Shown: positions 12,986-49,550 of the stretch, in pieces
Layout of the letters: each line of letters starts with the position of its first letter
How positions within the stretch are numbered: the stretch's first letter is position 1
Assembly: GCA_029883265.1 (NCBI GenBank)
Contig: JAOUJM010000001.1
Location: forward strand, 10,511 to 74,510
Source: Gammaproteobacteria bacterium
Lineage (GTDB): Bacteria; Pseudomonadota; Gammaproteobacteria; S012-40
Reading direction: 5' to 3'
DNA: 64,000 nucleotides
Position numbers and translations under genes: made by a program
Notes under the pieces: model-generated
Seen by the model: the letters and a program-made list of their open reading frames with translations, nothing else
Told to the model about the DNA's origin: nothing
Database searches by the model: none

Positions 12986-12986
12986 T

Positions 12987-25800: not shown

Positions 25801-28800
25801 CCGGTTCGCTACCTCAGAGACTCTCAACAACTGTCTTGCAATAGATTCTAGCGTGTCACCGGACCTGACAATATACAAATTGCCAGAATAGGTTGTTTTG
25901 CTGAACCCCCCTTCCTGACCATTAAAGGTGAGATAGTTATAATCGTAACGAGTAACTTTATCACCATAGCTGACATGTTTTACCACCCGTCCTAATGCAT
26001 CGAAATAAGTCCGCTCTCGTCCACCGCCTTGGTCATGGAGAATTTCGTCATGGGAATTTGTATCCGGGTCAGTTAGATCGAGTGATGTATCAACTAAATT
26101 GATATGTGCAATTCGGTTACCATTTTCATCATATTCGTACTTTTCAACATTGTCGTATATATTGCTAGTTTCTTCAGTAATACCACCAAAAGAGCCTAAT
26201 ACATATTTTATAACATTATGTTTTTCTTTAGTAACATAGGTAATTTGGTTATTGTGATCAAACTGATATTTTGTCACGCGATCTGAGTCAGCTGTTAGCT
26301 TCTGACGTTTTTCAATTACATTACCAAAGCCGTCATAGACATAGGTCATTCCGCCCCCATCAGGGTTGAACTCCTGCTTGAGGCCATTTTGGTCATAAGA
26401 GAATCTTTTTAAATTGTTGCGTGCATCTGTAATTCCAGTGACATTACCCAGCTTGTCATAGTAATAAATCGCATTGGCATCCTGAATAGTTTGAAGCCGA
26501 CTGTAATAACTATTTCGAATTGGATCTTTTCGCGGATTACTTTTTCTAATTAGATTACCCATCTTGTCATATTCAAAGTAGGTATAGATATCTTTGCCAT
26601 CTTTTTCTTGGACAATTTCTCCAAAAGCGTTGTAGTAGTGAGATTTGTGAATTTGTACAAACTGGTCTGGATCGCTGTTATCACTAGAATTCACGCGACG
26701 ATGTGAGTAAAGTGACGCCTCACCTGTTAAATCGATGGACAATTGTCCCTGCAATACTTTGGCATTGGGATCATTTGGTTTATAGGTATAATTAATAACA
26801 TAGTCACCGGAATAGCTTCTTGGAACTGAATATCTTTGTCTCGTGCTGTCCGTTATAGTACGGAAAATTATTTCTTTGTATGTTTCACCGCCAGATTGTC
26901 TAATTGTTGCTGACAGTGTTCCTTGTGCTGGATCAACGTTTTCAAGATATACATCCCTGATATAATACCAAGATAAGCTAGAATCCATAAATGGAAATGA
27001 AGTAACGCGAGCCTCAATCGAATTATCACCATCATCCGAGCTAAAAGCGTTGCCATCTAAGCGCAAATGACTGCCTGGTTCTACTGATGGGTTATTAGAT
27101 AAATTCAGAATTACTTTCCCTGTATGAGGCGTTAAATCTGGGTTTGTTGCTTCATTGTCATAATGATATTCATATTTCAACTCAAACTGTCCTTCGAGTC
27201 CAGCATCGCCAAAATTCCAGGTTTGCCAGGAAGGATTAAAACCACTCGGTGTATCAAAATGTTCAACAGTAACCCACTCAGTTTCACCCACCCGTCTAAT
27301 CTCTACCGTTAGGGTGCCCAGAGACTTTGGTACATTCTTTAATATAATATCTCGACCATAGTACTGGTCGACAGCAACGTAATTATTCTGGCCGTCCACG
27401 TCACGAAAGCTTCCTGATACCGACGCAATGGTATAGCCATTCTTCTTGATTGTGGCACTATATGTCCTGGAACCAATATCATGTCCTTTCGGCGTACGAT
27501 AATGCGCGTCCTTACCGCCACTCCCATATGTGATAATTTTTTCTTCTTCATTATTCGGATTAAACTCTAGCACCAGACTACCTTCACCGTAGGAATTCTT
27601 GATTGAATCCACATTCGGATCTACGGCATCCCACCAAGTCTCCGCCCAGTCTTTACCTACAGCGTCATGAACACGTAGATGTAAACCACCATAGGGGGTA
27701 ACTTCAATATCAACTTTTCTATCACTTAATGTCTGGTATAGAGTTTGTGAAATCGACTGAGTGTGCGATGGTTCGTAAATATGAACAAGTTCGTTTCTTT
27801 CATTGTAAACGCTTGAACGATAAACAGAAGGAGCATTGTTATCAGTGATTGATGGCAGGATCTCTTTTGTCGCATTTCCGTTACGATCATAAGCATATTC
27901 CTTGACCACACCATCGCTGTTAGTTTTAATCAGGTTGCCGTTGCTGTCATATTCAAAAAACACTTGCCTGGCTTTGTTAGCTTCTGGACGTGATAGTTGA
28001 AGTGTATTTCTTTCGTATGCGCCCTGAAACGCTGCTTTTTCATAGCCATTGTATTCAGTGTATTTGTTCTCAAAGTAAGCATAGACAGAAGAATTTTTCT
28101 CTGTCCTTTTTCCACTGACTATGTTCCTATTTAGTCTATCATAAATGTATTCCGCGATATCTGTAAAAAGGTTTCCATCTGCATCATGTCTATTTAGGCT
28201 TTGGGTTCTAACATTACCAACAGCGTCGTAAGTATACTTGTTATTGGCACCATATTCTTCACTAACATTGGCATTGAAGTTTGCATCCCAATCCTCCAAC
28301 AACCTCCCATCAACTCCGTATGAGAATTTTTGTATTTGATCAAGGTTCGCAAGAGAGGGAGCACCATTAAGAGGAATATTTCTAGACTCACTGTCTTTCT
28401 CAGATGCAATATTTCGCGCCTCGATCACATTCCCATGTGCATCATATATATTTTTTGTAGATTTAAGACCTGATTTTTTTGTTAAGAGGCGACCTAAAAC
28501 ATCGAAACTATAATTTGTAGTATTTGACTCCGCGTCTACTATAGTGGTTATATTTCCCATTACGTCATAGACATATGCAGTAACACTATCTTCAAGCACT
28601 CCAGATTGCATGTTACCGTTACTAAAAGAGTATGTTTGAAAATTTTCCAAAGAATCCGTTTTCAGCCTATTTAATTTGTCGAATGAATAATTTTTAATTC
28701 TCGAATCAGAATATTGATTATCTCTTAAATCAACACTTTCTATCACAAAATTGTAACCACCATTCGTTGCAACGTTCACATTAGACAAATTAATCGAACC

Positions 28801-31800
28801 GCTTTTTATTACTCGATCGTTATCTTGCAGAATATATGATACCGTTGCTCTTCCACTAATGTTACCGACATCAAAAAATGCTTCGCCATTTTCATTCACC
28901 ATAACATCTACTGGTGTAGCAGTCGTTTCACCTTCTCGCAGCAGGCTCGCGCTCCAGACTCCACCAACATAATCAACGTCACTAATCTTCAAACGATTGA
29001 CATCAAATGCTGAGTATCCGGAATGCCAGCCTTGTGATCCAAGCATAAGATTCGTATCCACTCTTGCAATTTCAAAAGAGTCTGAATTGCTTATAAGTGT
29101 GATAACAAACTCTTTGATTTCACCAGTATTATATGAACGAAGAGGTATTGTCCCTTTGGTAAGGATTGTCGTAGTAGGAAAAGTTGTGTGATAAGTGCCA
29201 TCCGCTCTCGCAGCTCGAATAACGTAATAGTCGCCTTGTTTTAAGGTGGGAAGATTTATTTTTACGTACATCACAGAAGGCATCCCATCGCCTACCTGCC
29301 AAAAGTAAGGATAAAAGTAACCTTCCTCCAAATTGACTTGAACGATTCGATCCTCGTAACCGTTTGTTTCAAACTTCTCAAGCACTTCTAATAAAGAAGT
29401 ATTTTCATCCACCACATCTCTTAAACGTATCGAAGCCTTCTCTTCTCTAATCGCATTATTGAATGCATCGTAATTCCACTGGGTTGCATATCTTAGTGCA
29501 TCAACTGTGACTCTTTTATTACCTTTTTTATCATAATAATGAAAAATAGAATTTTCGTTTCCATCTACTTCTCTTACTAAGCGGCCTTTATGGTCATAGT
29601 ATTTCCGAATCACCGTTTCGCTGACATAATTTTCTTCCTTAATAAATTGATCATCACCAGGATCACCAATGGGCACCATTCTATCTTTTTCATAACGATG
29701 CTCTGCCGGAAGTTTTGTCTCCACAATTTGATTAAATGCATCATAACGATGTGTTAGTTGCATGTAGACATTTGAGACTGTAAATTTGTAAATCGAGTCT
29801 GCGAAGGTTGCAGTATCACGATATTTTCGCTCTTCAATAATATTACTCACAGAATCATAGGCAAACGTTTTCAAGAACCCTTCCGCATCGTGGGTGGCTA
29901 TCCGTCGTCCTAAATTATCATAATAATGCTGAGTTATGTTTAGATTTGCATCAATTTCACGGACCAAATTGCCAACAACATTGTATTTTTGTTCGATTGT
30001 GGTCGTTATACCCACGCTATCACCGGCACTCAATTTTATTCTATGGTTTTCCGTTTTAACCAGTAAGTTTAATTTGTTATAGGTATAGCTTCGACTTCGC
30101 TCTTCCTCCATGCCCGCTGCTTCTCGTGAAATGCGCCGGTTTCCGAATGCATCGTAACTGAACTCATTTGTTTGTCTTTCAAAACCTGTAGTTTCAAAAT
30201 CGATAAAAGGCAGCAAGAATCGCCCATCCATGCCTACCTCAATGGATTCACGATCGCTGATTCCACCTTTGTTAGCAATCGGCAAATACTCACTCGTCAA
30301 ATTTCCTTTGCGATCATAATTGTAGTGGTATTGATAACCAAGCGAGCGTTGGTAGTCTGGGTCTAGAACATTTGTTATAGGTTGATGACCTAGTAATTTT
30401 CCAATCTGATTTCCAAACGCATCATAATCATATTTTTCTTTTACCGATTCTGCATTGGTTAATTCAGTTTTGCGGTTCAGTTGATCGTAGTTCAGTAAGG
30501 TCTTTTGATCTTTATCAGTATTAATCTCCAAAAAGGTTTCGAGAATCTGACTTTCCGTGGTGTTGTCATCAACAGTATGAGCGGCCGCAATTGCGGTTGC
30601 ATATTGCATCGTACCCGTTAGATTACCCATTCCATCATAGGCTTTGGTTGTCACATAACGCTCAGGATCAACCACCAAAGTATTGCGATCAAGCTTATCG
30701 TAGTAAAAATAACTTATTGTGTCATAGGGTTCAGTAATTTTAGTAATATTACCAAACGCATCATAATCGGTTTTCTTCAATTCAAAAATATTGACGGTGC
30801 TACCAGCGCCTTCCTTAATCACTGATGCCGTCTTACGATTTAGCTGATCAAATGTCTGATACGTTGAATAGTAGTTTAGTAATGTATCTTTTTGATCCTG
30901 TGTTAACTGGATATAACTTAAGTTTGTAGTTGCCGTTAAACCGAGAATTAATTTACGTTCATTATCAGCCCAATCAGAATCAGTTTCTGTAAGCTCAATA
31001 CCGCGTGGATCAATAATCTTTGTCTGATTACCAAACGCGTCATAACCGAACTCACTTGAATAGGCCATTTGAGTTTGTGGATGTGCGGTATCAAGATTAG
31101 CTACAACACTGGCAGCCTCGAGATAAACTGTACGGCGTGTTAACAGACCACGCTGACTAAATTCTTGCGTGGTGCGTTGCAATTCATCACCACTGATATT
31201 GAGTCGCTTAACAATCGACGTTGTATTACCAAATGCATCGTAGCCATACTCCGTTACCAAGTCTCCATTCTCATCAGTTGAATGCGTCGTATACGACACA
31301 TTCTCAAGTATCTCTTGATATAATCGCCCGGCATCATCGTATACATAACGGGTACTGCGATCACCACTTGTTGTATCACTATTTCTATACAATAGGTTCG
31401 TACCACTAACTAGTAGTTGAATATCTCCCTCATTTCGAACATCAAATCGTTGTGTTGCCAAGGTGGCGACACCACTTTCTGGAAAACCTTCCGCTGTTGT
31501 ATCGTTAACAACCTGTAGTTGGTTAGCGTATTGAGTTACCCGAGATAGAAGATCACCTGTATATTCTCGTCCAGTGACATAACCCTCTGCATCGACACTG
31601 AAACTCACTCTACCTGCAGCGTCGTACTGTTGAAAACTAACACGGTCTTTACCACTCGTCGCCGTAACAAGTGGCGTTGTTTCAGTGACATCCACCACTT
31701 GTCTGTTCAGAGTATTAATACGCGTTTCTAAGTAGGTGTTCCACTCAGCGGCTGTAGGAGTAGAGTCTTGATAGGAATTAATAGTGAGTGCCTGATAGAA

Positions 31801-34800
31801 ACGCGAAGCAACAATTGCCTGTCCCAATGCATCGTAGCTTGTCTGATTAACATACCCCAAGGCGTCTATCGAGTAAATCTTGCGTCCGGCATTATCATAA
31901 AAATAATGATTAATCTGATCAGTAGACGAATTACCCGCTAGGTTTCCTCGAATAGTCGCCTCTTTATAATCCGCAAATGTAGTTTCTTTTGAGGCATAAC
32001 GCATGCTAAGAATAACTTGGCCACTAGCGTCATAACGTTTTTCATTGACGTAGCCCATGGCATCCACGCTATAACGCAAACGGTTTAGCTTGTCGTAAGC
32101 AAAGTGATCGCCCTGATCATTTGCAATAACATCGGGACGTTTCTGGAGAATTGTTTGCGCGAGTAATTCAGTGTTAGTGCTATTTATCGTAGCAAGATCG
32201 GTGGTAGATACTGAATTAGCCAGCCTAGATTGACGAATCACATTACCATTGTCGTCATACTCGTACACAGTATAGTTGCCCACTGCATTTACCGTTACAG
32301 TCAGGCGACCATCGTCATCAAAAACTGAATAATCAACGATATCTTTTGCAAGGTCCGCTGATGCCGAGACTAAACTCAGAATGTCGGCTTCCGTTGAATG
32401 ATCATCAAGAGTAGTTGTGGATATGGGCAAGGCATACTGAATTGTCTTAACCTTGTCCCCTCTGTCGTTATACACCGACTCAACCACTACTGCTAGCTGA
32501 CCTGTTGGAATAGGATCCAATTCCATGTATTCAAAATCAAGAACGTCAGCATTCTTGATGGAATAACGTAACCGATTAACATCATCATAAACATATCTCA
32601 TGGAGTGTGAGGTATCTTCCGCGCTCAAATCGGTAGCGAAAGCAACTTCTGAGGTTTCACTAAATGCACCAAGGGCCGGGGTAAATGGTAGAACTGTAGC
32701 AACACTTAACTCTAAACCATTACGCAATAGAACTAACTCATATGTAAAGCCGGATCGACCTCGCCTGTAACGCCCAAAATCAGAGTCAGCTGGAGAATCA
32801 TAAACCGTAGTTCCATTCTCTTTTAACAGAATCCGGTCGGTTGCTAAAGAAGTTACATTTGACCACATCACATAGTAACTTGAGGTTAGCGTTTGATCAT
32901 CAAAAGCATAATTCAATGTTAACGAGCCACTCAATCCGCTAACATCTACTCGTCTGTAACCCTCCACCTTACGCACCATATTATCCGCAGCATCATAATA
33001 ATATTTAGTAGTAATATTTAACCCACCCGGATCAACAATCGTATCTGTGCGTCGACCTAAGTGATCGTAAATGTATTGTGTTTCCCTGGCTTGTGTACTA
33101 TTGGCGCCTTCGGTAACCGTTAATTGACGACCTTCTGCATCATACGTATATTCGGTCCGCAGATTTAAACCACCATTGACGGCATCAACAACGACGGCTA
33201 ATACATTACCCGCACGATCATATTCGGTATCCGTATGTACACCGTTGGCATCAATGGTTGTAACTTTGCGACCCAGACCATCAAAGACATACTGGGTTTG
33301 AATATTCAGTCCAGTCTCATTGTCACCCGTAGTGTGAATCGTCATGGGATCAACGGTACGGGTCATCACCCGATTGGCGGCATCATATTCAAACTTGGAA
33401 TAGACACCATTTTTATCCACGGTGTGGGTTAATCTTCCCGCCTTGTCATACTCACTAGTTATTGTGTTATTGAGCATGTCAACCACTTTAACCAGCTTGC
33501 CATTGGTATCATAATGATACTCTGTACCATCATTTGAATTTGCTGCCGACTGATTGCCGTCAATGATTTTAATCGTTTGACCATTGCGATCCGTAATGGT
33601 CTGTGTCTGAATCAATTCAGGCGTCGTCACCGTCAAGGTATGCGTCGCATCATCATACGCATAAGTGGTTACATTCAAAAATGCATCGGTCATGGTCAAC
33701 ACTCGACCAAAGGCATCATAAGTTTGTGAACGTGATACGTCTAATGCATTCCTTGTTTGTACCTGTCGCCCCAGACGATCATATCCAAACTGAGTGATGT
33801 TGCTATTACCATCGGTTGATTGAATCACACGACCAAACGCGTCATAGGTTCGCTTGGTTTCGATTTCGAGTCCAGTATGACCCGCGACAGACACGTCTTT
33901 AAGGGTTGAGGTTGAAAGACCGCGACGATCATAAACATACGTGTCGCTACGACTCGTTTGCCCGGTAAGTGCTTGACTGACAGGTATCAGCGTAGGATCT
34001 TGCTGCTGCACCGATGAACTTATTTGACCGAACGCATTGTATGCATATTCGGTGCGTTGGCCTTCGCCATTGATGGCCCGCCATATGGCACCGCGAAGAT
34101 TGTAAGAAGACTGAGTTCGACTATCGACCATCGTATTTCCACTAAGCCTATCAAGAAAAGATGGAGTTACCAAGCCACCGGTCAACGTATTACTATTAGT
34201 GATGCGGGTGGAGTACGCAACGGTTTCTTTCACTTCACCGAATTGGTTATAGCTCAATTCGTTGACTTCGGCGACATTACTCAAAACCTTACCACTTTCA
34301 TCCAGAGTACCGCTGACGTCCTGTGCAGTAAAACGCAAACGACCATTATCATCATAATAGAACCAAGTTCGATGATCGTTTTGATCTTTGGTCGACGTTC
34401 TTAATCCTTGCTCGTTATAGGTATGAGTAACTCCATAGATTTCCCAAAGTAAATCTAATTCAGATTCACTAGGATTTATTAATGTGTCAAGCTTGGCGAT
34501 ACCTTGTGCATTAAGTTGCTCACCAATTAAGCGTCCTTGAATATCATAACGTAACAACGACGACCGCTGGTTATGAGTATAAGAAAAACGACCCGGCAAA
34601 TTCAGCATTTCCCCAACCGTTGGGGAAGCGGCACCCATGAGTTCCGCAAACGCCACAAAAGCATTGGCATTCGCTGTGTGATAAACCGATCGAACAATGC
34701 TTTCCCACGTATCACCTGATTGTACGGTATAACCATTTTCTGGGGCTAAACTGACATCAAGATCGGCAAACTCAAGCAGAGCATTGAGGTAGGAATCTGT

Positions 34801-37800
34801 TTGTCGAATCAGATTACCCACGTCATCGTACGCATAACTCGTCACTAACCCATCAACAGAATTAGTCACTGTTTCCATCTGATTTAATTCAGTGTAAGTC
34901 TTAACAATCGTTTTATCATTCACATGCGCCAATCGTTTCTGAATCAAACCATGCGCAACACTAACGGAATATGTATCTGGTGTTGCAACAACTTGCTGAT
35001 GTTCGCCTGTGGTAATGGATTGTATTTGCAGATCACGGCTCGTAAGATCATTATTCACAAACGTTAAATCAATCGTGTACGTATCCCGCTGATCAAACAA
35101 TGCATTAATCTGGTAGTCTTTAAAGTTTTCGCTGTCGACAACAATACTGTCAACCAGTACTCCATCGACGCGTACTTCCATGATCGGATATGTTCCATCG
35201 GCCGGAATGCCTTTCGCGCTTATGATTAATGCTTTGTTGTTGTAACGTATGCTTTCTGTCTCGTTGCCGTTTAGGTCATAGGAAAATGTACTTAGGTAGC
35301 CTTCTGCATCATGATTGGCAATCAACTGGCCTTTGGCATTGTAGAAATTGTAGCTATATTGATCTTTGGCTAAATTTCTTACGATAGCATCCTTCAATTG
35401 CTGTAAACTTGCACTGGCTAAATTCGCAGTACTGCGATTCGCATAGGCGCTGGTTTTCACCACTTGCCCTGCCGCATTATATTCTGTCTCGGTTAAGTAA
35501 CCTTCCGCATCAAGCGTCGCAACAAGTTGTCCATCATTGTTATAGAAAAACCGAGTGCGTCGATCGTTATTCGCATCTTCGTTTACATAAGTACCTGTTG
35601 TTGAATCGAGAAAATATTCTGCTCTGGGGTTATTCGGCATCCCAGTGATAACAAAAGGATTCGCATAAGCAATACTGTGAGTGAGTTGATTACTTCCATC
35701 ATAGAAATGTTGAGTAACTGCAACCCGTGTCACATCATTGTCATACGGCGTTAATTGCATCACCAATCGATCTGCATCGTCGTAGATAAAATAGTTGATT
35801 CGGTCGCTGGGGCTGCTATTGGGTTTGATTGCGCTTAACTCATAGAAATTGCTGCCTGCAACATAGGGATAATTGACGATCGACTGGAGGACTGGCGTCG
35901 AATATTCAATGGTTTTTATTACCCGTCCCGCATCGTCATAAACGGTTTCAGTCAACCCGCCTTCTTTATCCACCGTCGCCACTAAACGATTTGTAGCATC
36001 GTAGTAATTTTGGGAATAGTTGCCGGTTTGATCTATAGTCAGGCGCAGGTTGCCGGAGGAATCATACTTGTATTCAATTGTTCCCAACGGATTCAACTGA
36101 CCATCCTGCTGAGATTGTGATATGGCATAACCGTGTGAATCGTACACAGTGGTTGTCTGCAATTCATTTGCATCGGTTCGAACAATTTGATTTCCGACAT
36201 CATCATAGAAATAAGTCGTCGTATGATTCAGTGGTTTGTTTGATGCCAGTAATCGTCCTAATCCATCATAGGTGAACGTTGTAATAAAGTCTCTTGTTTC
36301 ACCCGTTGCTGCTGCTTGAGCCTCAATCGTTTCAATGAGAATGCCTTGGGCGTCATAAACAAAATGTGTGGTACTGGCAGTGGTAGTGACGCCCGCACCG
36401 GTCGTTGGATTAATCGAATCAAAGGTGGTCACCGTGCTTATATTGCCGCGGAAATCATACGTCGTATCACTGCGCTGTAAAATATTGCCCACGTTAACAA
36501 CCGAGTTGTAGGGCGCTTGATTCAATAATGTTGCGGATATAGGTGTAGCGGGATCTAAAGCACTGGTATCAATATGCCCCTTATAAAGGATTTGGCTGAT
36601 TTGTCTCCCTTGCGTATCATATACATATTCATTGACGACACCCTCGGAACTAACTGTAAATACCAAATGTTGCTCTGCGTCATAGATATAAAAACTACTT
36701 TGTGCATCTGAGGCACCGACACCACCGGTCCCAGTGTTATTGATATCCGCACCATCGGGGTCATTCACGCGATAACGGGTTTCGGAAATAATTTGATTAA
36801 CATCATTATATTCATAATCAACACGCACGCCTTCACTATCAATCATTGACGTACGATTGCCCTGATCGTCATAAGCAAAACGCGTTATATTGCCATTTTG
36901 ATCGGTAATGGACGTTATGTTATCGCTGCTGCGACCATCCTCATCATAACCATAAACCATCCGATTTTGATTTTGGTCATAGAACTCATGTAATCGATTC
37001 TGCTCATCAAGAAAATAATTCGTCTGTGTATTGCGAGTCAGATCCTCAACCATCGTCCGGGTGGATGTTGTTTCATTTTTCACATAATAGAAATTGAGTG
37101 GCATGATTAAATCCATGCCTTCGACGAGTGAGGTGACGCCCTGCGAGGCAAAATATTCCTGCAAACTCACAGCGAGTTGTTCGTCGCCATAAATCGCAAA
37201 CGCAATGTTTTCCCAAGTGTCACTCGCACTAACCGTGTGAAAGGGTGGGAGCGTAAACTCTTGATAAGTGGGTGAAAAGAAATTGAAGGTATGACTACTC
37301 AGATTATTTTCAATCAGGCCACCACCCACACTGCTCCAGTCATTCCATAGATAAAAGGCCTGTCCTTGCTCGTCCAGTGATAAATCGACCAGAACTTTAT
37401 TACCAGTTCCCACACCATCTTGAGCAACTTCGTCACTCCAGCCACGACCGGGAACATAGTATCTGCTTTTAACAACTGCGGCGCCCGACGCACCATCTTC
37501 CCAAAGTGCGACGATACGCCCTTGTTTGTCCTGCTCAATTCGGTAATCAAAATAATTCGAATTACCTCTGGATGTAGCGCCGAGTAATTTAGTGTCACTC
37601 AAACCGTTAACAGAATCAAAAACTCGCGTATAAAGATTGCCGCCATTCTTCCACGTCACCAACCATTGATCACCATCCAACTTGAAGATTTCTGGATTGA
37701 TATTCGTGTTATATAAAGTGCTTGAAATCGTATCGACAACAAAACCCGTTGACCAAGCAGCGCCGCCTTCTGAATACCATAGATTGATTTTTGGACTGGA

Positions 37801-40800
37801 GGCCTGTACAAAAACCATAAGTCGATTACCCAAGCCATCACTTTCTAACTTAATATTGTTGCCACCATCTAGTACACCAAAACCCGGAATACTTAACTTT
37901 TGTGATGCAGCCCATCCTGTAGCTACCGAATAGCGCATGGTGCGAACTGCTCGGGAAATTTCCCAAACCACTTCCAAACCACCATCGGGGAGAACAGTGG
38001 CATTAAAATCGGCGTTGTAGGTGCCACCCAGATAGGTTTCACCAATCCAACCCGATCCCAAAACATAACGATCGGCTTTAATGGGTTGTGGATTGGTGGA
38101 GGTATTACCTTCAGTCCATACTAGATAAACATCACCATTATGGCCTTGATGTAATTGAAATGGTTTCCATTCGGGAAAGCTCACCGGTGCTTTAACAGTG
38201 GGTGCGCTCCAACTATTCGTTGATGCATCATAAAACATCACCATTAAATTGCCGGAGGTATTGGCAAGATTCATTTCATAATATGCAACGGTAATATTGC
38301 CCGCGTCATCAATTAATACCTGGGGCGCTTCCATACGCGTGGACATTGCTTGCCCATCCACCAATGTTATTGCAGCTTGCCAATTTACATTAGTACCGCT
38401 TTGTTGATAGCGACTGATATATAGACTTTTAGATTGTGCAATACTTTGATCGGCCAAGACATCATTATCAATCCAAACTGCCACACCCTGCCCGCTGGTG
38501 TTAGACGCTACATCGATACTTTCTTCCGCTTGCGCCGATGTGCTATACACGGTGTTGGTTGCGACGGCGTGTTCCGCATTGCTTAGCCAACCAGGATAGA
38601 AATCACCGGCATAAACAATCTTTGTAGTCTGTAATTGTTCTGGAAGGGCGATAGCAGAGGCAACTTTATTTAAGTCGAGATTAATGCTTTTGTTTACAAA
38701 TTCACCACTAACTATTTCCGACCAACTCAGTAATCCGAAACCTAGCTCATTCACACTTAGATAAGGACCATAAATACTACTGTCACTTGCGGCCACCTGA
38801 CTCGGACTTGTCCAATTTGCACCATCAAGTGAATAACGCACGAAAAGCGTGCTCGGACCATTTTGTTCACGCCACACCAGTGCCATTCGACCTTGATCAT
38901 CTTGATGAACCTCATAATCAAAATAAAGATAATGACTGGTGAAGCTTTGCTGGGTCGCCACGGATGTTGTTGTCGACCAGCCCGTTGCTGAATCAAATCG
39001 CTTGGAAAACACTTCCTGGTTATCCTTCCAAAACAACACCCAATTGCCTTCCCCTTGATTGAGCAGTTTTAGATCCTTATTGCGATAGGTGCTTGAAGTT
39101 AATACGCTATCGATATTTTCAGTGGTTGTGGTATCACTCATCGCATCATAATACGATGTACCTAAAACACCGGCGTTGTACCACACCATGAGGCGGTTTC
39201 CTACAGTGTCGCTATCGTGGGCGATATTTGCATAGGTATTTGTAATGAACTGATTCTGGGTTGGTTGAACACCGACGCCTGCAATGTAGTCAGTAACTTT
39301 AACAAGATTGCCTCGCGACCAGGCAACGCTCGCATTACCCGACTCGGTGACATCTAATACCGGATACAAATTGAAAGTGGTACCATAGAGACGATCATTG
39401 ATAAATTGCGCGCCCGTCCAACCGGATCCCGCGACAAATCTATCCAAAACAATATCATTGTATTCCGGCGAGGGACTGTCTTGGTTGTACATCAGATAAA
39501 AAGCCCCGGTTCCACCGGTTTTCAGCTCAAAAAGCCGTTTTGAGTCGTAATTTGCAGCCATGTTCTGAATGGTATGTTGCTGCTCGGATTGCCACGTTTG
39601 TGTTGCCGCATCGTAAAAACGTGTCATCAAATAGTAATTACTAGACGTCAGCTCAGCACCATCATTCTCCTGCCACGCAATCATGGCATTACCTGCATCA
39701 TCAATGGCGACCTTAAGATCATAGAAAGTGACGGTGGGTGTGGTTTGTCCTATGGCAGGTTCGGCGCCAACAGTAATGCTTTTTGGTTCACCCCAGGAGC
39801 CACCAAACTCATTCATGGTGTAGTGTGAAACAAAAATGCTTTTGGAATAACCACGGCTGAAATCGCTCGTGGTGTTATCCTCGATCCATGCGGCAACACC
39901 AGAACCATTTGCACTCATAGCGACATGAGGATTGATCGCTGCGTATTGAGTGGTTTGGGGTAGTGTTTGCAAGGTTCCCGTAGACACAACTCGTTCACCC
40001 GGATAGGTGTAACGTGTCTCATTCCCCAACACATCGCTTACCGTTTGTAACTGACCGGCTGCATTATAGGTAAAAGAAATACTAACCCCATCACCACTGG
40101 TAATGTTACTGATTAAATGGCTCACATCATCCCGATAGGTATAAGTCGTTACATAACGTTGGCCATTAATCGTAGAATTGGTTGTACCGCTAATAGCACT
40201 GATGAGCGAATCGGGTGATAAATCAACAATCACCTGAGTTAAACGATTCAATGCATCATAAGTGTAATGGGTGCGTGCACGGGATTCGACAGCTTGAGTT
40301 TTAGTATCTCGAACCGTACTGGCGATTTTTGTTAAATTTCCTTTAGGGTCATAAACAAGATTAACTGTTTCGACAATACCTTCTGCTTGTAGTAGTTCAA
40401 TTTTTGAAACAAATTGACTGGGCGTGGATCCCCCACCGTAATTATATTTAATTTCATTCTGATCAGAATCAACAACACGACTAACACCCCAAATCGCGCT
40501 ACCATCTGTTGCGGTACCAATTTGCGTATATTCTTCGGTAAAGCTTGAGTTGCCATCCCAAAATGTCCAGTTAGTACCATCAAAAGTTAATATATCATGA
40601 GCGCCATCACCGTCAGTGCTAATGTAATGGTTGTTGGCTTGATCATAAGTAAAGAGTGCTTCAAATCCATCCTTATACGATTTGATCACACTGGAACCAT
40701 CTTGGTTGACCGTTCCCGACAAGCTATGAACACGACGATTTACTCCTAGTCGCCAGTTATCACCATTGTCATCATTTTTCTGACCCAGACTGTTATAAGT

Positions 40801-41001
40801 ACGAACCAGATTGAAATCGAGTCCCAAACCAGAGATAAATTCATCCTGGGCTTGCACCACCAAATTACCCGTTTGGGTATTCACATAAACATTGTCGCCA
40901 TTGCGGCCCAATCGAGCTTTGCCTTGGCCGGCATCATTGCCGATGAGATTAAGTGAGGTGTTGTATAAACCCAGTCCTTCACCATTGGTTATCGCAACCA
41001 T
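21847..41001 (-). CDS. Giant YD-repeat (Rhs/teneurin-like) polymorphic toxin, 6,384 aa; C-terminal 330 aa supplied by IS66-type element B
   Basis: Single uninterrupted 19,155-nt ORF with a GGGAGA SD before the ATG at 41001. Dozens of YD-type repeats (YxYDxxG(R/N)L...), LysM-like modules, C-terminal GHSLGG hydrolase domain. No signal peptide, PAAR, TPS or LXG-type N-terminus recognised by eye. Confidence 0.9.
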   Translation of the reverse strand: MVAITNGEGLGLYNTSLNLIGNDAGQGKARLGRNGDNVYVNTQTGNLVVQAQDEFISGLGLDFNLVRTYNSLGQKNDDNGDNWRLGVNRRVHSLSGTVNQDGSSVIKSYKDGFEALFTYDQANNHYISTDGDGAHDILTFDGTNWTFWDGNSSFTEEYTQIGTATDGSAIWGVSRVVDSDQNEIKYNYGGGSTPSQFVSKIELLQAEGIVETVNLVYDPKGNLTKIASTVRDTKTQAVESRARTHYTYDALNRLTQVIVDLSPDSLISAISGTTNSTINGQRYVTTYTYRDDVSHLISNITSGDGVSISFTYNAAGQLQTVSDVLGNETRYTYPGERVVSTGTLQTLPQTTQYAAINPHVAMSANGSGVAAWIEDNTTSDFSRGYSKSIFVSHYTMNEFGGSWGEPKSITVGAEPAIGQTTPTVTFYDLKVAIDDAGNAMIAWQENDGAELTSSNYYLMTRFYDAATQTWQSEQQHTIQNMAANYDSKRLFELKTGGTGAFYLMYNQDSPSPEYNDIVLDRFVAGSGWTGAQFINDRLYGTTFNLYPVLDVTESGNASVAWSRGNLVKVTDYIAGVGVQPTQNQFITNTYANIAHDSDTVGNRLMVWYNAGVLGTSYYDAMSDTTTTENIDSVLTSSTYRNKDLKLLNQGEGNWVLFWKDNQEVFSKRFDSATGWSTTTSVATQQSFTSHYLYFDYEVHQDDQGRMALVWREQNGPSTLFVRYSLDGANWTSPSQVAASDSSIYGPYLSVNELGFGLLSWSEIVSGEFVNKSINLDLNKVASAIALPEQLQTTKIVYAGDFYPGWLSNAEHAVATNTVYSTSAQAEESIDVASNTSGQGVAVWIDNDVLADQSIAQSKSLYISRYQQSGTNVNWQAAITLVDGQAMSTRMEAPQVLIDDAGNITVAYYEMNLANTSGNLMVMFYDASTNSWSAPTVKAPVSFPEWKPFQLHQGHNGDVYLVWTEGNTSTNPQPIKADRYVLGSGWIGETYLGGTYNADFNATVLPDGGLEVVWEISRAVRTMRYSVATGWAASQKLSIPGFGVLDGGNNIKLESDGLGNRLMVFVQASSPKINLWYSEGGAAWSTGFVVDTISSTLYNTNINPEIFKLDGDQWLVTWKNGGNLYTRVFDSVNGLSDTKLLGATSRGNSNYFDYRIEQDKQGRIVALWEDGASGAAVVKSRYYVPGRGWSDEVAQDGVGTGNKVLVDLSLDEQGQAFYLWNDWSSVGGGLIENNLSSHTFNFFSPTYQEFTLPPFHTVSASDTWENIAFAIYGDEQLAVSLQEYFASQGVTSLVEGMDLIMPLNFYYVKNETTSTRTMVEDLTRNTQTNYFLDEQNRLHEFYDQNQNRMVYGYDEDGRSSDNITSITDQNGNITRFAYDDQGNRTSMIDSEGVRVDYEYNDVNQIISETRYRVNDPDGADINNTGTGGVGASDAQSSFYIYDAEQHLVFTVSSEGVVNEYVYDTQGRQISQILYKGHIDTSALDPATPISATLLNQAPYNSVVNVGNILQRSDTTYDFRGNISTVTTFDSINPTTGAGVTTTASTTHFVYDAQGILIETIEAQAAATGETRDFITTFTYDGLGRLLASNKPLNHTTTYFYDDVGNQIVRTDANELQTTTVYDSHGYAISQSQQDGQLNPLGTIEYKYDSSGNLRLTIDQTGNYSQNYYDATNRLVATVDKEGGLTETVYDDAGRVIKTIEYSTPVLQSIVNYPYVAGSNFYELSAIKPNSSPSDRINYFIYDDADRLVMQLTPYDNDVTRVAVTQHFYDGSNQLTHSIAYANPFVITGMPNNPRAEYFLDSTTGTYVNEDANNDRRTRFFYNNDGQLVATLDAEGYLTETEYNAAGQVVKTSAYANRSTANLASASLQQLKDAIVRNLAKDQYSYNFYNAKGQLIANHDAEGYLSTFSYDLNGNETESIRYNNKALIISAKGIPADGTYPIMEVRVDGVLVDSIVVDSENFKDYQINALFDQRDTYTIDLTFVNNDLTSRDLQIQSITTGEHQQVVATPDTYSVSVAHGLIQKRLAHVNDKTIVKTYTELNQMETVTNSVDGLVTSYAYDDVGNLIRQTDSYLNALLEFADLDVSLAPENGYTVQSGDTWESIVRSVYHTANANAFVAFAELMGAASPTVGEMLNLPGRFSYTHNQRSSLLRYDIQGRLIGEQLNAQGIAKLDTLINPSESELDLLWEIYGVTHTYNEQGLRTSTKDQNDHRTWFYYDDNGRLRFTAQDVSGTLDESGKVLSNVAEVNELSYNQFGEVKETVAYSTRITNSNTLTGGLVTPSFLDRLSGNTMVDSRTQSSYNLRGAIWRAINGEGQRTEYAYNAFGQISSSVQQQDPTLIPVSQALTGQTSRSDTYVYDRRGLSTSTLKDVSVAGHTGLEIETKRTYDAFGRVIQSTDGNSNITQFGYDRLGRQVQTRNALDVSRSQTYDAFGRVLTMTDAFLNVTTYAYDDATHTLTVTTPELIQTQTITDRNGQTIKIIDGNQSAANSNDGTEYHYDTNGKLVKVVDMLNNTITSEYDKAGRLTHTVDKNGVYSKFEYDAANRVMTRTVDPMTIHTTGDNETGLNIQTQYVFDGLGRKVTTIDANGVHTDTEYDRAGNVLAVVVDAVNGGLNLRTEYTYDAEGRQLTVTEGANSTQARETQYIYDHLGRRTDTIVDPGGLNITTKYYYDAADNMVRKVEGYRRVDVSGLSGSLTLNYAFDDQTLTSSYYVMWSNVTSLATDRILLKENGTTVYDSPADSDFGRYRRGRSGFTYELVLLRNGLELSVATVLPFTPALGAFSETSEVAFATDLSAEDTSHSMRYVYDDVNRLRYSIKNADVLDFEYMELDPIPTGQLAVVVESVYNDRGDKVKTIQYALPISTTTLDDHSTEADILSLVSASADLAKDIVDYSVFDDDGRLTVTVNAVGNYTVYEYDDNGNVIRQSRLANSVSTTDLATINSTNTELLAQTILQKRPDVIANDQGDHFAYDKLNRLRYSVDAMGYVNEKRYDASGQVILSMRYASKETTFADYKEATIRGNLAGNSSTDQINHYFYDNAGRKIYSIDALGYVNQTSYDALGQAIVASRFYQALTINSYQDSTPTAAEWNTYLETRINTLNRQVVDVTETTPLVTATSGKDRVSFQQYDAAGRVSFSVDAEGYVTGREYTGDLLSRVTQYANQLQVVNDTTAEGFPESGVATLATQRFDVRNEGDIQLLVSGTNLLYRNSDTTSGDRSTRYVYDDAGRLYQEILENVSYTTHSTDENGDLVTEYGYDAFGNTTSIVKRLNISGDELQRTTQEFSQRGLLTRRTVYLEAASVVANLDTAHPQTQMAYSSEFGYDAFGNQTKIIDPRGIELTETDSDWADNERKLILGLTATTNLSYIQLTQDQKDTLLNYYSTYQTFDQLNRKTASVIKEGAGSTVNIFELKKTDYDAFGNITKITEPYDTISYFYYDKLDRNTLVVDPERYVTTKAYDGMGNLTGTMQYATAIAAAHTVDDNTTESQILETFLEINTDKDQKTLLNYDQLNRKTELTNAESVKEKYDYDAFGNQIGKLLGHQPITNVLDPDYQRSLGYQYHYNYDRKGNLTSEYLPIANKGGISDRESIEVGMDGRFLLPFIDFETTGFERQTNEFSYDAFGNRRISREAAGMEEERSRSYTYNKLNLLVKTENHRIKLSAGDSVGITTTIEQKYNVVGNLVREIDANLNITQHYYDNLGRRIATHDAEGFLKTFAYDSVSNIIEERKYRDTATFADSIYKFTVSNVYMQLTHRYDAFNQIVETKLPAEHRYEKDRMVPIGDPGDDQFIKEENYVSETVIRKYYDHKGRLVREVDGNENSIFHYYDKKGNKRVTVDALRYATQWNYDAFNNAIREEKASIRLRDVVDENTSLLEVLEKFETNGYEDRIVQVNLEEGYFYPYFWQVGDGMPSVMYVKINLPTLKQGDYYVIRAARADGTYHTTFPTTTILTKGTIPLRSYNTGEIKEFVITLISNSDSFEIARVDTNLMLGSQGWHSGYSAFDVNRLKISDVDYVGGVWSASLLREGETTATPVDVMVNENGEAFFDVGNISGRATVSYILQDNDRVIKSGSINLSNVNVATNGGYNFVIESVDLRDNQYSDSRIKNYSFDKLNRLKTDSLENFQTYSFSNGNMQSGVLEDSVTAYVYDVMGNITTIVDAESNTTNYSFDVLGRLLTKKSGLKSTKNIYDAHGNVIEARNIASEKDSESRNIPLNGAPSLANLDQIQKFSYGVDGRLLEDWDANFNANVSEEYGANNKYTYDAVGNVRTQSLNRHDADGNLFTDIAEYIYDRLNRNIVSGKRTEKNSSVYAYFENKYTEYNGYEKAAFQGAYERNTLQLSRPEANKARQVFFEYDSNGNLIKTNSDGVVKEYAYDRNGNATKEILPSITDNNAPSVYRSSVYNERNELVHIYEPSHTQSISQTLYQTLSDRKVDIEVTPYGGLHLRVHDAVGKDWAETWWDAVDPNVDSIKNSYGEGSLVLEFNPNNEEEKIITYGSGGKDAHYRTPKGHDIGSRTYSATIKKNGYTIASVSGSFRDVDGQNNYVAVDQYYGRDIILKNVPKSLGTLTVEIRRVGETEWVTVEHFDTPSGFNPSWQTWNFGDAGLEGQFELKYEYHYDNEATNPDLTPHTGKVILNLSNNPSVEPGSHLRLDGNAFSSDDGDNSIEARVTSFPFMDSSLSWYYIRDVYLENVDPAQGTLSATIRQSGGETYKEIIFRTITDSTRQRYSVPRSYSGDYVINYTYKPNDPNAKVLQGQLSIDLTGEASLYSHRRVNSSDNSDPDQFVQIHKSHYYNAFGEIVQEKDGKDIYTYFEYDKMGNLIRKSNPRKDPIRNSYYSRLQTIQDANAIYYYDKLGNVTGITDARNNLKRFSYDQNGLKQEFNPDGGGMTYVYDGFGNVIEKRQKLTADSDRVTKYQFDHNNQITYVTKEKHNVIKYVLGSFGGITEETSNIYDNVEKYEYDENGNRIAHINLVDTSLDLTDPDTNSHDEILHDQGGGRERTYFDALGRVVKHVSYGDKVTRYDYNYLTFNGQEGGFSKTTYSGNLYIVRSGDTLESIARQLLRVSEVANRIGSDNGVVDETLVVGNTLTVYLYGRREKLNYIVQTGDTLASIAYSLLNVEDMSNSIGQANNITDADLKAGLQIIIPHYETRAITDQYDYFNKLVYHRDLGNRSYRYFYDARGQLRYQIGNTDPGASIIATDAAWNNIDTQLHGFTYDYMDLYRYSLNNFMTNHSDYDQVIEFDYNDNGSLKAKVDYGFNGGNDGVRLVSRYGYDNNGNKTYEAVYEEGANADIGKDYQYTIAIYDDYNRVVEINDPFFNITYDYDEMGNRIHVVSKYHGGIDLNAHRGADYREATGDFVQEHWYDYDSMNRFRITQGRLDVGGSGNVEIAENKGYEVLYNLAGERIGVNYIRANTTMIERYGYTKNGILETVEHGKIVDNVEDKNLVSRRLLDALGRTSSSHLYDPDIETVVTTIPPQSVQQYDYSYDLDSRISRIEYRKRVENSEDQFLYLQEQSTIHNDYTYREIDRLDLAEKNVSYQVKSIEEQKNFRNSYFYSYWDSAKKSVGRSDVNSRGFVDGYSHLYYDQNGHLMRMDDSNSPLHGTKYERRVEFTVDADGRIIMRNEIDNTNYDVNRYFYLNGRGIGEVSNRGAGETDYTQILAQSRLSNKEIADNEKRGKNRVISADFDQNYQAISANYPANTASEYLVVQGDTLETIAGKVWGDASLWYVIANANNITNIDLTPGISIIIPNVVTNIHNNADTFKPYSPGEIIGSTDPSMPARNQPSKSEIFWMNVASVVISIAAFIVFGPQGAIIAAGMTSYAIQKYMKNVGYIDEIDEEEIVKSMTIAAIISQIPGLNQTGGGVVKGALQGAGRALISTGLSMAMESTEQRKKYNSQAGNLFANVAVGALVGGVTSSLPSNVGKVDGWGFAGVAGDAIRGALTGVGRIAVNSMTLKDYRPDWRTVAVEALSSAASGYISAEQSTKKFDNKLDELKINDHRQRQAIKKHYTKSIRKGVSGEDAWKSALGELPLFGGIQPGRNLIRNGGKTYNGYGQVSVQNSAPGKIPYRQSSDAVETKPILTFKNGQLVDENGTLYNSQLASAAPIRLDFSGSLDWYENAMVSDDVYQEYTGKEPKKVTEDIYRMGRDFIDVLDMKPENFVDKKSGYQGALYFNYRTSEFIFANRGTDTKLGRHEAVKDAVASIAQGSDFNSTQYEFGINLAIDLQIALGSSPLTFTGHSLGGGIASAQAGRLKSSAVTFNAAGLSDGTIERYGMDRNHLKKNVYAFYTPGEILSTLQASPVVDSVLNQWGTVPKNLLAAVMALNDVSYGRDIGWHRFGPGQMPEAAGTRIAVPAVNEAKQPLPWQSYLDPVDLHDMQYFINAFK
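22817..22839. repeat. IS66-type right terminal inverted repeat (element B), translated as VSVQNSAP within the giant ORF
   Basis: GGGGCAGAGTTTTGGACGCTTAC; identical to the right IR of element A (10478-10500). Confidence 0.8.
22840..22847. repeat. 8-bp target-site duplication, right copy (CTGGCCAT)
   Basis: Encodes (Y)GQ of ...TYNGYGQ in the giant ORF. The same octamer and frame are found at 18725-18732. Confidence 0.85.
23146..23640 (-). other. Hydrophobic helix + glycine-zipper-rich segment of the giant protein (aa ~5788-5952), between repeat shell and toxin
   Basis: IFWMNVASVVISIAAFIVFGPQGAIIAAGMTSYAI ... GGGVVKGALQGAGRALISTGLSMAM ... AGNLFANVAVGALVGGVTSS ... GWGFAGVAGDAIRGALTGVGRIAV. Confidence 0.6.
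23761..23895 (-). other. LysM-like module 5 of the giant protein (aa 5703-5747)
   Basis: YLVVQGDTLETIAGKVWGDASLWYVIANANNITNIDLTPGISIIIP. Confidence 0.7.
25576..25875 (-). other. Tandem LysM-like modules 3 and 4 of the giant protein
   Basis: YIVRSGDTLESIARQLLRVSEVANRIGSDNGVVDETLVVGNTLTVY and YIVQTGDTLASIAYSLLNVEDMSNSIGQANNITDADLKAGLQIIIP. Confidence 0.7.
34597..34731 (-). other. LysM-like module 2 of the giant protein
   Basis: YTVQSGDTWESIVRSVYHTANANAFVAFAELMGAASPTVGEMLNLP. Confidence 0.6.
37099..37239 (-). other. LysM-like module 1 of the giant protein (aa ~1255-1301, degenerate)
   Basis: HTVSASDTWENIAFAIYGDEQLAVSLQEYFASQGVTSLVEGMDLIMP. Confidence 0.45.
37297..39939 (-). other. Two tandem ~420-aa repeat units (aa ~355-775 and ~825-1235), each of 7-8 blade-like segments: twin beta-propeller-like domains
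   Basis: Recurrent ~50-aa pattern G-x-x-x-(V/L/I)-(A/V)-W-x(8-20)-(R/K)-(Y/F)-x(3-6)-W(S/T). Examples: SGVAAWIEDN..SHY, AGNAMIAWQEND..TRFYDAATQTWQ, GRMALVWREQN..VRYSLDGANWTSP. Second unit: GQGVAVWIDND..SRYQQ, GDVYLVWTEGN..DRYVLGSGW, GRIVALWEDG..SRYYVPGRGWS. Confidence 0.55.
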
Positions 41002-43876: not shown

Positions 43877-44809
43877 CTAAATATCAGTTGTTTCTTGATA
43901 ATTAAGAAGATACGGAGTAATTGTTTGCTCGGTTCGGTTCAATAAATAAAAACCGTGTTGATCGACAAGCGCGCCTCTTAATAAAATTAAATCACCATCG
44001 GTAGAAACAGAATATGATTGTATAACTCCACTGTATTCAAAATTAGCTGGGACAAAATCCAATGAATCGACAGTTGTCGTTTTTGGCTGAACATCCAGAA
44101 TATGAAGATCATTATCGGTGATGCCATATAGTTGATCTAGCAAAGAGTTGTATTGCCGAGGTTTGAAGGAAATGCCTTGTTCCGTATAAAAAGACAACTG
44201 TAGATCCAAAATTACTAAGGAATCAGTTGTTGGATGATAGAGAAAAGCTTCTGCATCCGTTTTCCATACGAAGAATCCGTATTGATCACTACTTTCTACG
44301 ACTGTACCAAAATCGTTGACGATCTTAAAGCTGTTGGCCGTGGAAACTGCGATTAAGCTACCATCGGGTGAAGTGTCTAAATTAATAGGTGGTTCTTCCA
44401 GGAGCATTCGAGTTATCTCTACTCCTGAGGCATCGTAAGCAATCAGTCCGTATTCTTGAGTTAGGCGATTTTCCGTGACAAAGAAGGTTGTATTATTTGT
44501 TAAACGAGCTGCGTATAGTTCTGCAATCGAATCTGCTTTGTGATCGTTCAGTTGCATAATTTTCACAGGAGTTTGAATCGATGTTGCTGCTGTAAACACG
44601 GTTTTAGTGTTACTCACCTGGTTATGGGAAGACTGAGGCCCCCAGGTTTTTTGAAGATCCTCGAGAAACAGAACACTGTTATCTGTATCAAAACTCGCGG
44701 CAAAGTAAGAAATGTGTCTTGTTTCCGTTTCTGTCTCGTTTGGCAACAGATCACATCCTAATAAAGTCACGGCAATGTAAGCCGTGACAAATCTAAACAA
44801 TATTTTCAT
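43877..44809 (-). CDS. Lipoprotein, beta-propeller-like (TolB/PD40-type SPDG/STDG motifs)
   Basis: 310 aa. Lipobox VTLLGC. Motifs DTSPDGSLIAVST, SVSTDGDLILLRG. Confidence 0.55.
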   Translation of the reverse strand: MKILFRFVTAYIAVTLLGCDLLPNETETETRHISYFAASFDTDNSVLFLEDLQKTWGPQSSHNQVSNTKTVFTAATSIQTPVKIMQLNDHKADSIAELYAARLTNNTTFFVTENRLTQEYGLIAYDASGVEITRMLLEEPPINLDTSPDGSLIAVSTANSFKIVNDFGTVVESSDQYGFFVWKTDAEAFLYHPTTDSLVILDLQLSFYTEQGISFKPRQYNSLLDQLYGITDNDLHILDVQPKTTTVDSLDFVPANFEYSGVIQSYSVSTDGDLILLRGALVDQHGFYLLNRTEQTITPYLLNYQETTDI

Positions 44810-46980: not shown

Positions 46981-47436
46981 AGATGTTTAGTCGGATTGCA
47001 CAAAAAAATGTTCGTTTGACTATTCTTTATACGATTTTAATTTTTTAGTCTATTTTTGCCTAGCCATATGAGATGTCATGTCAATTTAAAGCGCTGAAGA
47101 TCAAGCTTTTTCAAAAAAACTTATAACGCTCTGAATGATTTTTTCCGGTGTATCAAGATTGTCTCCTGCTGCGAGAATAGTTTTACATAGGAGTACGAGC
47201 GGAGAATTTGGCTGCATGGCTTCCGCTTTTAGCAATACTTCGCTGGCCTGATTGTCATTGCCTTCAAACAATGCCACCAAAGCCAAACTTGCGAGTGTTT
47301 CCGCACTTTGTCCATCAAGTATTAATGCTTGCTGCAAGTTGCTTTTTGCTACTGAGATTTGATTACTGGCTATTTGCGCCCAGGCCAATGCAACCAGGTT
47401 CGCAGTGTCGTTTGGCATGAGGTTTGTGGCCTGTTG
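46981..47436. repeat. 456-bp direct repeat, copy B (within and downstream of the intact TPR gene)
   Basis: See copy A. Confidence 0.9.
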
Positions 47437-49538: not shown

Positions 49539-49550
49539 CCATACAACAGC

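Follow-up and report, generated by a model that had tools for sequence, protein, structure and literature searches.

The DNA analyzed here, referred to below as the window, is a stretch of 64,000 nucleotides from a gammaproteobacterial metagenome-assembled genome (MAG; assembly GCA_029883265.1, contig JAOUJM010000001.1), and it holds a single giant gene encoding a YD/RHS-repeat protein, the host protein of the element under study. The sequence of this protein is an exact match to NCBI MDH5228477.1 (cluster member P0152), whose annotation reads only "LysM peptidoglycan-binding domain-containing protein." The protein has the composition of an Rhs/YD container, namely a DUF6531 domain, which is the N-terminal plug of Rhs barrels according to the cryo-EM structure of Tse5 (PMC10684867), followed by a long array of RHS/YD repeats. 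Over the whole protein these repeats matched Pfam RHS_repeat in many copies (E = 1.5e-65) and NCBIfam YD_repeat_2x (E = 5e-52), and there were 62 local YD matches spanning aa 216-5344. Our subject is the largest YD-free gap in the protein, an inserted cassette composed of a linker, two tandem repeat units (U1 and U2) and a LysM-like segment (Table 1).

The initial annotation, a model's reading of the sequence, had singled out the interval 37297-39939 (-), which is exactly aa 355-1235 of the 6,384-aa open reading frame (ORF), as two units with the same succession of blade-like segments, and had proposed that they arose by tandem duplication of a whole propeller-type domain. Both ideas stand. 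BLASTP of aa 340-790 against aa 791-1260 produced one collinear alignment (394 aa, 28% identity, 133 bits, E = 1e-38), which is the strongest internal similarity in the whole protein as judged by self-tiling, and U1 and U2 are each other's closest relatives, with 133 bits between them versus no more than 86 bits to any other member of the propeller family described below. The four motif pairs that had been quoted, including GNRLMVWYNAG / GNRLMVFVQAS, are all present, at aa 434/898, 601/1058, 652/1111 and 703/1160. The units had also been placed correctly, although their true limits are slightly wider than the ~355-775 and ~825-1235 first given, and the propeller repeats, estimated at seven to eight per unit, number eight in each.

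The 16 blade segments are ~45-70 aa each and share a motif consisting of an h-x-h-x-x-D-x-x-G-x-x-h-h-h-W strand pair, then an h-h-x-x-R-Y/F strand and then a G-W turn, which is kept in 16/16 blades; the conserved residues that U1 and U2 have in common sit in these strand motifs. The blades were aligned by hand-anchoring, and independent hidden Markov models (HMMs) agree with that alignment. Three tests support the internal periodicity. In a leave-out test, in which an HMM built from 14 blades was scored on the omitted blade pair and compared with 500 composition-matched shuffles, ten of the 16 blades outscored every shuffle and three further blades fell in the top 5%, the weakest being the short terminal blades 8 and 16 together with blades 13 and 14. 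A blade HMM made from unrelated family members alone likewise matched 10/16 window blades. The window-derived blade HMM, for its part, detected eight-blade runs in P0002, an independent protein (see below), gave eight matches in U2, and found no further propeller copies elsewhere in the giant protein. At the DNA level there are no direct or tandem repeats of significance between 37000 and 40100, from which it follows that the duplication is old and that a recent origin for the pair can be ruled out.

To what kind of protein are these units related? An exhaustive HMMER search of 1.84 billion representatives with a U1+U2 profile gave a family of 1,835 representative proteins at E ≤ 1e-3, of which 280 reached E ≤ 1e-10, the host's own cluster included, with members retrieved at E-values down to 8e-29. 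A word-indexed homologue search with aa 340-1260 returned no match, which, given the 1,835 relatives found by HMMER, is a limitation of the index. Family members are mostly 400-600 aa long with seven or eight detectable blades, a period of ~48-52 aa and the blade consensus P-x-x-A-x-D-x-x-G-N-A-x-A-V-W ... R-Y-x-x-G-x-G-W-G. A crude pattern match found a lipobox-like N-terminus in 61 of 139 members, and larger members add PKD, fn3, Ig-like or Big domains to the propeller. Twinning is frequent, as several unrelated members have 14-16 tandem blades. YD proteins account for two of the top 150 family clusters, namely the host protein and P0002.

Pfam has no model for this family and offers only weak BNR_4, GH43 and SBBP matches; among 43 members, BNR_4 was matched by 14, GH43 by six and TEN_NHL by one (weakly, E = 6e-5). 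In NCBIfam, 35 of the 43 members (P0010 and P0024, for example) matched NF053835, "PDIAV motif-containing lipoprotein," at ~46 bits, that is, well under its cut-off of 90. U1 and U2 resemble NF053835 and the wider family in blade motif, in the ~48-52-aa period, in having eight blades per domain and in the occurrence of tandem twins in unrelated members. They differ in setting: the NF053835 form is a stand-alone protein of ~450 aa with an N-terminal lipoprotein signal peptide, and typical members of the wider family are ~400-550 aa long, many of them lipobox-like, whereas the host copy is internal to a YD protein. Kinship to NF053835-type proteins is at the superfamily level only, and the profile searches place U1 and U2 as divergent members within a large family, so far uncharacterised, of secreted/lipoprotein-type bacterial propellers.

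The initial suggestion of a propeller fold was borne out by structure prediction. With U1 aligned to U2 only, AlphaFold2 returned an all-beta model of U1 with a predicted local distance difference test score (pLDDT) of 72; with 43 aligned family members the pLDDT rose to 83.3, with a predicted template modelling score of 0.85, and the model had 30 strands in eight groups. The predicted fold of U1 is an eight-bladed β-propeller, a fold defined by eight tandem units of ~45-60 aa that form four-stranded antiparallel sheets around a central axis, and by its collinear homology to U1 the same fold is likely for U2. The closest matches to the U1 model were non-enzymatic eight-bladed propellers, and Foldseek on the first U1 model retrieved the seven-bladed lectins PLL and PHL, the AAL/FleA lectins and sialidases. 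General eight-bladed propellers and propeller lectins are fold analogues and little guide to function: BamB, the WD40 proteins Sif2, Cdc4 and TBL1XR1, cd1 nitrite reductase and the lectins PLL, PHL and BP39L have 5-13% identity and no sequence-level kinship to the units.

The sialidases listed by Foldseek raise the question of whether U1 and U2 could be catalytic, that is, glycosidase-like domains of the sialidase, BNR_4 or GH43 type that cut envelope glycans for passage of the toxin. A Pfam scan of the two units at E ≤ 10 returned only F5_F8_type_C, DUF6292 and BNR_4, all weak, with the proviso that HMMER's speed filters drop most matches above E of about 0.1, so that very weak matches could escape it. 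The BNR_4 match in U2 (19.1 bits, E = 9e-4), together with the BNR_4 and GH43 matches among the 43 family members noted above, is in keeping with such an enzyme. A search of PDB with a two-sequence profile gave no match, and with the 43-sequence family profile the only match was a marginal one over about two blades to the BNR_4 protein 4IRT, a putative neuraminidase (E = 1e-4). However, all of these Pfam matches lie under the family cut-offs and cover few blades. A BNR_4 domain would be expected to reach at least 27.3 bits and to have six blades and a catalytic Arg triad with Tyr/Glu, and U1 has no BNR_4 match. Sialidases are six-bladed and GH43 enzymes five-bladed; the U1 model is eight-bladed, and its best matches are non-enzymatic. 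Moreover, the invariant or near-invariant positions of the family are Gly and Trp alone, without a shared catalytic set of acidic, Arg or Tyr residues, and at just 28% identity the conservation between U1 and U2 is in the strand motifs. We consider a catalytic role very unlikely.

The limits of the insertion were set by comparison with P0002, a homologous YD protein of 7,019 aa from an ENA metagenome and the second-best match, for which TEN_YD-shell, RHS_repeat, LysM and Peptidase_M15_4 (a peptidoglycan peptidase) are the recorded families. Its gene (locus L001, ENA ERZ21270367 contig_4265, 10001-31060) adjoins a polyketide synthase/nonribosomal peptide synthetase cluster. Residues 1-288 of P0002 are 42% identical to aa 1-298 of the host protein, and across the junction P0002 aa 240-325 correspond to host aa 254-333 and P0002 aa 339-421 to host aa 1326-1408, so that 13 residues in P0002 stand against ~990 in the host protein. 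The C-terminal edge of the cassette falls at ~1313-1325, the value ~1313 having been set by eye from the junction sequences of relatives. As read from this alignment, the cassette (~980 residues, ~2.9 kb) is inserted between two consecutive YD repeats, ~240 aa past DUF6531. P0002 has eight-bladed propellers of the same family at other places (aa ~1065-1467, 3068-3473 and 4648-5045, with a partial set at aa ~4264-4497) and none at the host's site. These are nearer to stand-alone lipoproteins than to U1/U2, which points to separate acquisitions.

Is the same site occupied in other relatives? A search with the N-terminal 345 aa yielded 55 fragments, some of which go straight on with YD repeats, while in others a Thr/Ala-rich linker leads into PDIAV-type blades, at times with a LysM-like segment. 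A scan of one genome per GTDB species with a five-sequence N-terminal alignment found 248 loci, the best 80 of which were fetched; the ORFs were read from the start of the match and limited to 10 kb, and 65 gave a readable stretch of 700 residues or more. In 12 of these 65 loci propeller blades begin at aa ~345-470, and the other 53 had no propellers in their first ~3,600 residues. Of the 12 cassette loci, two belong to the cultured Steroidobacter flavus CGMCC 1.10759 and others to Steroidobacteraceae, Burkholderiales, Ideonella and Sulfurifustaceae MAGs. The insertion site holds one or two propellers in these relatives, each then followed by a LysM-like segment, with two propellers in at least seven of the 12 loci (8 + 8 blades in L008). 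In L003, L008, L028 and the host protein the twin copies are each other's best match (at 374-483 bits in L003, L008 and L028). That the copies match best within each protein rules out orthology of the twin across lineages, and implies either independent, repeated duplication or homogenisation by gene conversion.

The LysM-like segment that closes the cassette (HTVSASDTWENIAFAIYGDEQLAVSLQEYFASQGVTSLVEGMDLIMP) is degenerate. Against an HMM of the host's own three LysM domains it scored 11.1 bits, above all 1,000 shuffles (maximum 6.0), and as a domain in the whole-protein scan with the LysM HMM it scored 1.7 bits only. It is homologous to the segments that follow the propellers in relatives (E down to 6e-8), three of five of which match full-length Pfam LysM (26.7, 19.2 and 17.5 bits, one of them above the cut-off of 20.9), with no match for the other two. 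By these comparisons the cassette of the relatives would consist of a propeller and a LysM segment once or twice over, and that of the host of propeller, propeller and degenerate LysM.

Several other features of the giant protein deserve mention (Table 1). Its YD repeats total ~4,000 aa, about three times a normal shell, and DUF6531 begins ~40 aa from the N-terminus. No signal peptide, PAAR or VgrG-binding sequence was seen at the N-terminus by eye or in the Pfam scan, no dedicated predictor having been used. Local mapping placed three LysM domains towards the C-terminal end, and a CBM60-like stretch scored slightly below its cut-off. A GHSLG nucleophile-elbow motif and sub-threshold Thioesterase and Lipase_3 matches suggest that the C-terminus is a candidate α/β-hydrolase effector, a lipase or esterase. 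There was no match to the Rhs-associated core TIGR03696 in an NCBIfam scan of the whole protein, nor was the aspartyl-protease motif DPxG-x(10-30)-DPxG found in it. Two more YD-free stretches of 280-400 aa lie within the YD array; neither has any Pfam match, and each may be a further inserted domain of some kind. Finally, an 852-aa fragment (P0154, NCBI MDH5665937.1) that is 100% identical to aa 3220-4071 is filed under a MAG of the archaeon Nitrosopumilus sp., a placement that is almost certainly a binning error.

Table 1. Features of the giant YD protein (residues) and of its surroundings (positions in the window).
Feature	Residues (aa)	Position	Strand	Remarks
Host gene, giant YD/RHS-repeat protein		21847..41001	(-)	Uninterrupted single ORF, 6,384 aa
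DUF6531 domain	40-95	40717..40884	(-)	Pfam PF20148, 30.3 bits vs cut-off 24.1
First YD-type repeats	~100-333	40003..40704	(-)	Upstream of insertion; RHS_repeat match aa 312-339; local YD HMM matches aa 216-335
Inserted cassette (linker, U1, U2, LysM-like segment)	334 to ~1313	37063..40002	(-)	From junction alignment with P0002
Propeller unit U1	344-787	38641..39972	(-)	Blade starts aa 359, 430, 492, 548, 594, 645, 697, 747
Propeller unit U2	790-1256	37234..38634	(-)	Blade starts aa 830, 894, 949, 1000, 1051, 1104, 1154, 1206
Degenerate LysM-like segment	1255-1301	37099..37239	(-)	HTVSASDTWENIAFAIYGDEQ...GMDLIMP; closes cassette
YD-repeat array resumes	~1314-1408	36778..37062	(-)	Aligns to P0002 aa 339-421; RHS_repeat/YD_repeat matches from aa ~1338 on
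CBM60-like stretch	1926-2003	34993-35226		Slightly below cut-off
YD-free stretch	3840-4135	28597-29484	(-)	No Pfam match
YD-free stretch	4390-4800	26602-27834	(-)	No Pfam match
LysM domains	5043-5087, 5098-5145, 5703-5750			Local mapping
Thioesterase and Lipase_3 matches	~6180-6384	21850-22500	(-)	Below cut-offs; GHSLG at aa 6237
Ankyrin-repeat protein		21095-21823	(-)	242 aa; candidate immunity protein
IS66 transposase		19554-21044	(+)	
ORF with TNT domain		17834-18817	(-)	327 aa
String of small unannotated ORFs		9194-17500	(-)	
IS66 transposase		7647-9185	(+)	
ORF		42370-43845		No Pfam match
ORF		43877-44809		No Pfam match
DUF6973 protein		44815-46089	(-)	424 aa; E = 5e-21
TPR protein		47101-48189	(-)	362 aa
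Flagellar cluster		48804-53078	(-)	FliP, FliO, FliN-type C-ring protein, sigma-70-family factor

The next ORF downstream of the giant gene encodes the ankyrin-repeat protein, a candidate immunity protein, and beyond it lies an ORF with a TNT domain (tuberculosis necrotizing toxin, an NAD+ glycohydrolase) in a region bracketed by two IS66 transposases; this ORF and the string of small ORFs after it have the look of an orphan toxin/immunity array. On the upstream side of the giant gene, a 424-aa protein matches DUF6973 and, weakly, the eukaryotic Wnt family (22.8 bits vs a cut-off of 20.3), and the two ORFs adjoining it have no Pfam match. Further upstream is a tetratricopeptide repeat (TPR) protein with homologues in at least 15 of the 80 related loci (L005, L008, L012, L014, L024, L037, L046, L047, L049, L058, L068, L071, L075, L077 and L078), mostly within ~1-2 kb upstream of the YD gene and in either orientation, a count to be read with the caution that TPR repeats can inflate matches. 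By this recurrence the TPR gene may be a conserved partner of the YD gene. A flagellar gene cluster lies upstream of the TPR genes and, because of it, we regard the locus as chromosomal and not as part of a phage or plasmid. No genes of a type VI secretion system (T6SS) were found among the flanking ORFs scanned.

The initial annotation had considered propellers foreign to classical Rhs or Tc proteins, which is not accurate: TcB docks to TcA through its β-propeller, and a six-bladed NHL propeller immediately precedes the YD shell in teneurins and in the teneurin-like proteins of bacteria (PMC6425310). In the narrower sense that the propellers here are not of the TcB or NHL type the remark holds, as neither is among the Pfam matches to U1/U2 at E ≤ 10, which include no TcdB_toxin_midN, TcdB_toxin_midC, NHL or TEN_NHL. 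The TcB propeller is six-bladed. In TcB proteins such as TcdB2-TccC3 and YenB it closes the shell and docks to TcA, whereas the host protein has two eight-bladed propellers of an unrelated sequence family, its plug is DUF6531, the scan of flanking ORFs showed no TcA-like gene and not all homologues have the cassette. Teneurins have the same order of plug, propeller and YD shell in one polypeptide and an NHL propeller that mediates recognition from outside the shell. They differ from the host protein in that the NHL propeller is six-bladed and of another family, and in that the plug is an FN-plug and not DUF6531; moreover, the host cassette follows several YD repeats, is doubled and is then succeeded by a LysM-like segment.

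Could the propellers nevertheless act as a docking or gating device like that of TcB, positioned over the N-terminal aperture so as to connect the shell with a distinct partner for translocation or secretion, and control cargo release instead of binding the cell surface? The topology matches, since the TcB/teneurin propeller lies between the plug region and the main YD spiral and makes protein contacts with its outer face (PMC6425310), the cassette lies ~240 aa past the plug, and with the upstream TPR protein, here and in at least 15 related loci, a partner is conceivable. Nonetheless, the propeller families of TcB and teneurins are missing from the Pfam matches, there are eight blades and not six, a scan of 20 flanking ORFs, covering part of the window, turned up nothing like TcA, VgrG or PAAR, and the plug is already supplied by DUF6531. 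The insertion is absent in 53/65 loci and P0002 has its propellers at three to four other places, a distribution more in line with an optional accessory than with a gate. On balance, we think a TcB-like gate unlikely.

A third comparison is with the Gram-positive WapA proteins (LysM repeats and DNRLRE), of which that of Streptococcus suis is an Rhs-family toxin proposed to be anchored to peptidoglycan via LysM (PMC12704120). These also combine an Rhs/YD container having DUF6531 with LysM and an accessory surface domain (PMC12704120). However, the binding region of WapA lies ahead of DUF6531 and behind a Sec signal and is removed by cleavage, while the host cassette comes after DUF6531 inside the YD array, and our protein is from a gammaproteobacterium and has no signal peptide that we could see on reading its N-terminus. 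A search of the literature found no description of such a propeller cassette. In functional terms the layout recalls the plug, propeller and shell plan of TcB and the teneurins, and a propeller on a YD shell is a known idea; what is new is the recruitment of an unrelated eight-bladed family, a third solution beside those of TcB and the teneurins.

The reading we favor is that the cassette is an external ligand- or cell-envelope-binding module on the giant YD protein, which we consider probable, with the uncertainty lying mostly in the function and less in the anatomy (the duplication, blade count, fold, family kinship, insertion site and recurrence). That the propellers are external we infer from their size, because a pair of ~100 kDa (45-50 kDa each) cannot fit the YD cavity, and U1 and U2 would thus sit outside the shell near the N-terminal aperture. 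The initial annotation had offered "binding or plug domain": binding is plausible as an inference, but the plug alternative must be abandoned since DUF6531, the plug in solved Rhs structures, already fills that role at the N-terminus, and the insertion is absent from most homologues. A binding or tethering role is suggested by three observations: 1. the family otherwise occurs in lipoproteins and in surface proteins with PKD, fn3 and Ig domains, 2. the cassette is associated with LysM and 3. the host protein and P0002 alike have additional LysM domains, with candidate enzyme domains at their ends. The cassette would then bind glycans of the cell envelope, or proteins of the cell surface, and so hold the toxin container to the target cell or to the producer itself, perhaps jointly with the LysM domains. 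Anchoring of an Rhs-family toxin via LysM has a precedent in S. suis WapA (PMC12704120), and TcB with TcA and the teneurin NHL domain are precedents for a YD shell whose recognition surface is a propeller (PMC6425310).

A number of our results weigh against this reading. The closing segment has no direct match to Pfam LysM (PF01476). Neither U1, U2 nor the twin matched NF053835 at E ≤ 10, Pfam and NCBIfam gave no family at threshold for U1 and U2 directly and nothing significant for aa 340-1330, and the units score no more than 86 bits to the rest of the family vs 130-480 bits among other members (130-230 bits in the comparison that included U1 and U2). Across the family, the invariant or near-invariant columns are structural Gly and Trp only, and we found neither a ligand nor a binding site nor any conserved surface residue. 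The source names are all "hypothetical protein" save one evidently mis-assigned YheU label, a literature search for "PDIAV" found nothing relevant, and the gene neighborhoods of two stand-alone members had no shared context and gave no functional clue. The other members of the host's 90%-identity cluster are all 99.9-100% identical fragments from the same population, and a ratio of nonsynonymous to synonymous substitutions is impossible to obtain for U1/U2 because there is no close non-identical orthologue. Given their divergence, relaxed constraint on U1 and U2 is a possibility. Taken further, this would make the cassette an evolutionary passenger, a decaying and functionally neutral insertion tolerated at a permissive loop of the YD array, and it is true that the units have moved much further from the family consensus than other members have, that the LysM-like segment is degenerate and that the site is permissive, with the cassette present, absent, single or double. 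Decay is difficult to reconcile, however, with a ~2.9-kb insert that keeps an open frame within a 19-kb ORF, with strand motifs kept in every blade and a U1 that folds confidently in silico, and with retention and repeated duplication of the cassette in several lineages, and a passenger seems to us highly improbable.

Returning to the binding module that we prefer, a bolder version of it would make the cassette an integral device for receptor binding or cell-wall docking in a class of giant proteobacterial YD containers that operate with neither a T6SS nor TcA, which at present we regard as quite unlikely. The short stretch of ~40 residues ahead of DUF6531, in which no PAAR, VgrG-binding or signal sequence was seen, and the failure to find the canonical Rhs core protease belong to this picture. 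Were it true, target recognition would be encoded in an expandable, repeatedly duplicated module of the shell wall, a new delivery mode for Rhs-type toxins. Ours is a finding about domain architecture in a MAG and not a demonstrated mechanism. The cultured homologue from S. flavus CGMCC 1.10759 makes the binding idea testable.

The known YD/Rhs shells of TcB and the teneurins carry one accessory propeller, and it is this propeller that decides the docking of the container. In the host locus and in at least a dozen relatives from Steroidobacteraceae, Burkholderiales and other Proteobacteria, a propeller, usually with a LysM-like segment, occupies a fixed site after the plug and has been duplicated repeatedly. 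If the cassette is indeed a recognition module, it would provide a handle on how very large YD proteins find their targets, and would give a first functional context to a propeller family of about 1,800 representatives.

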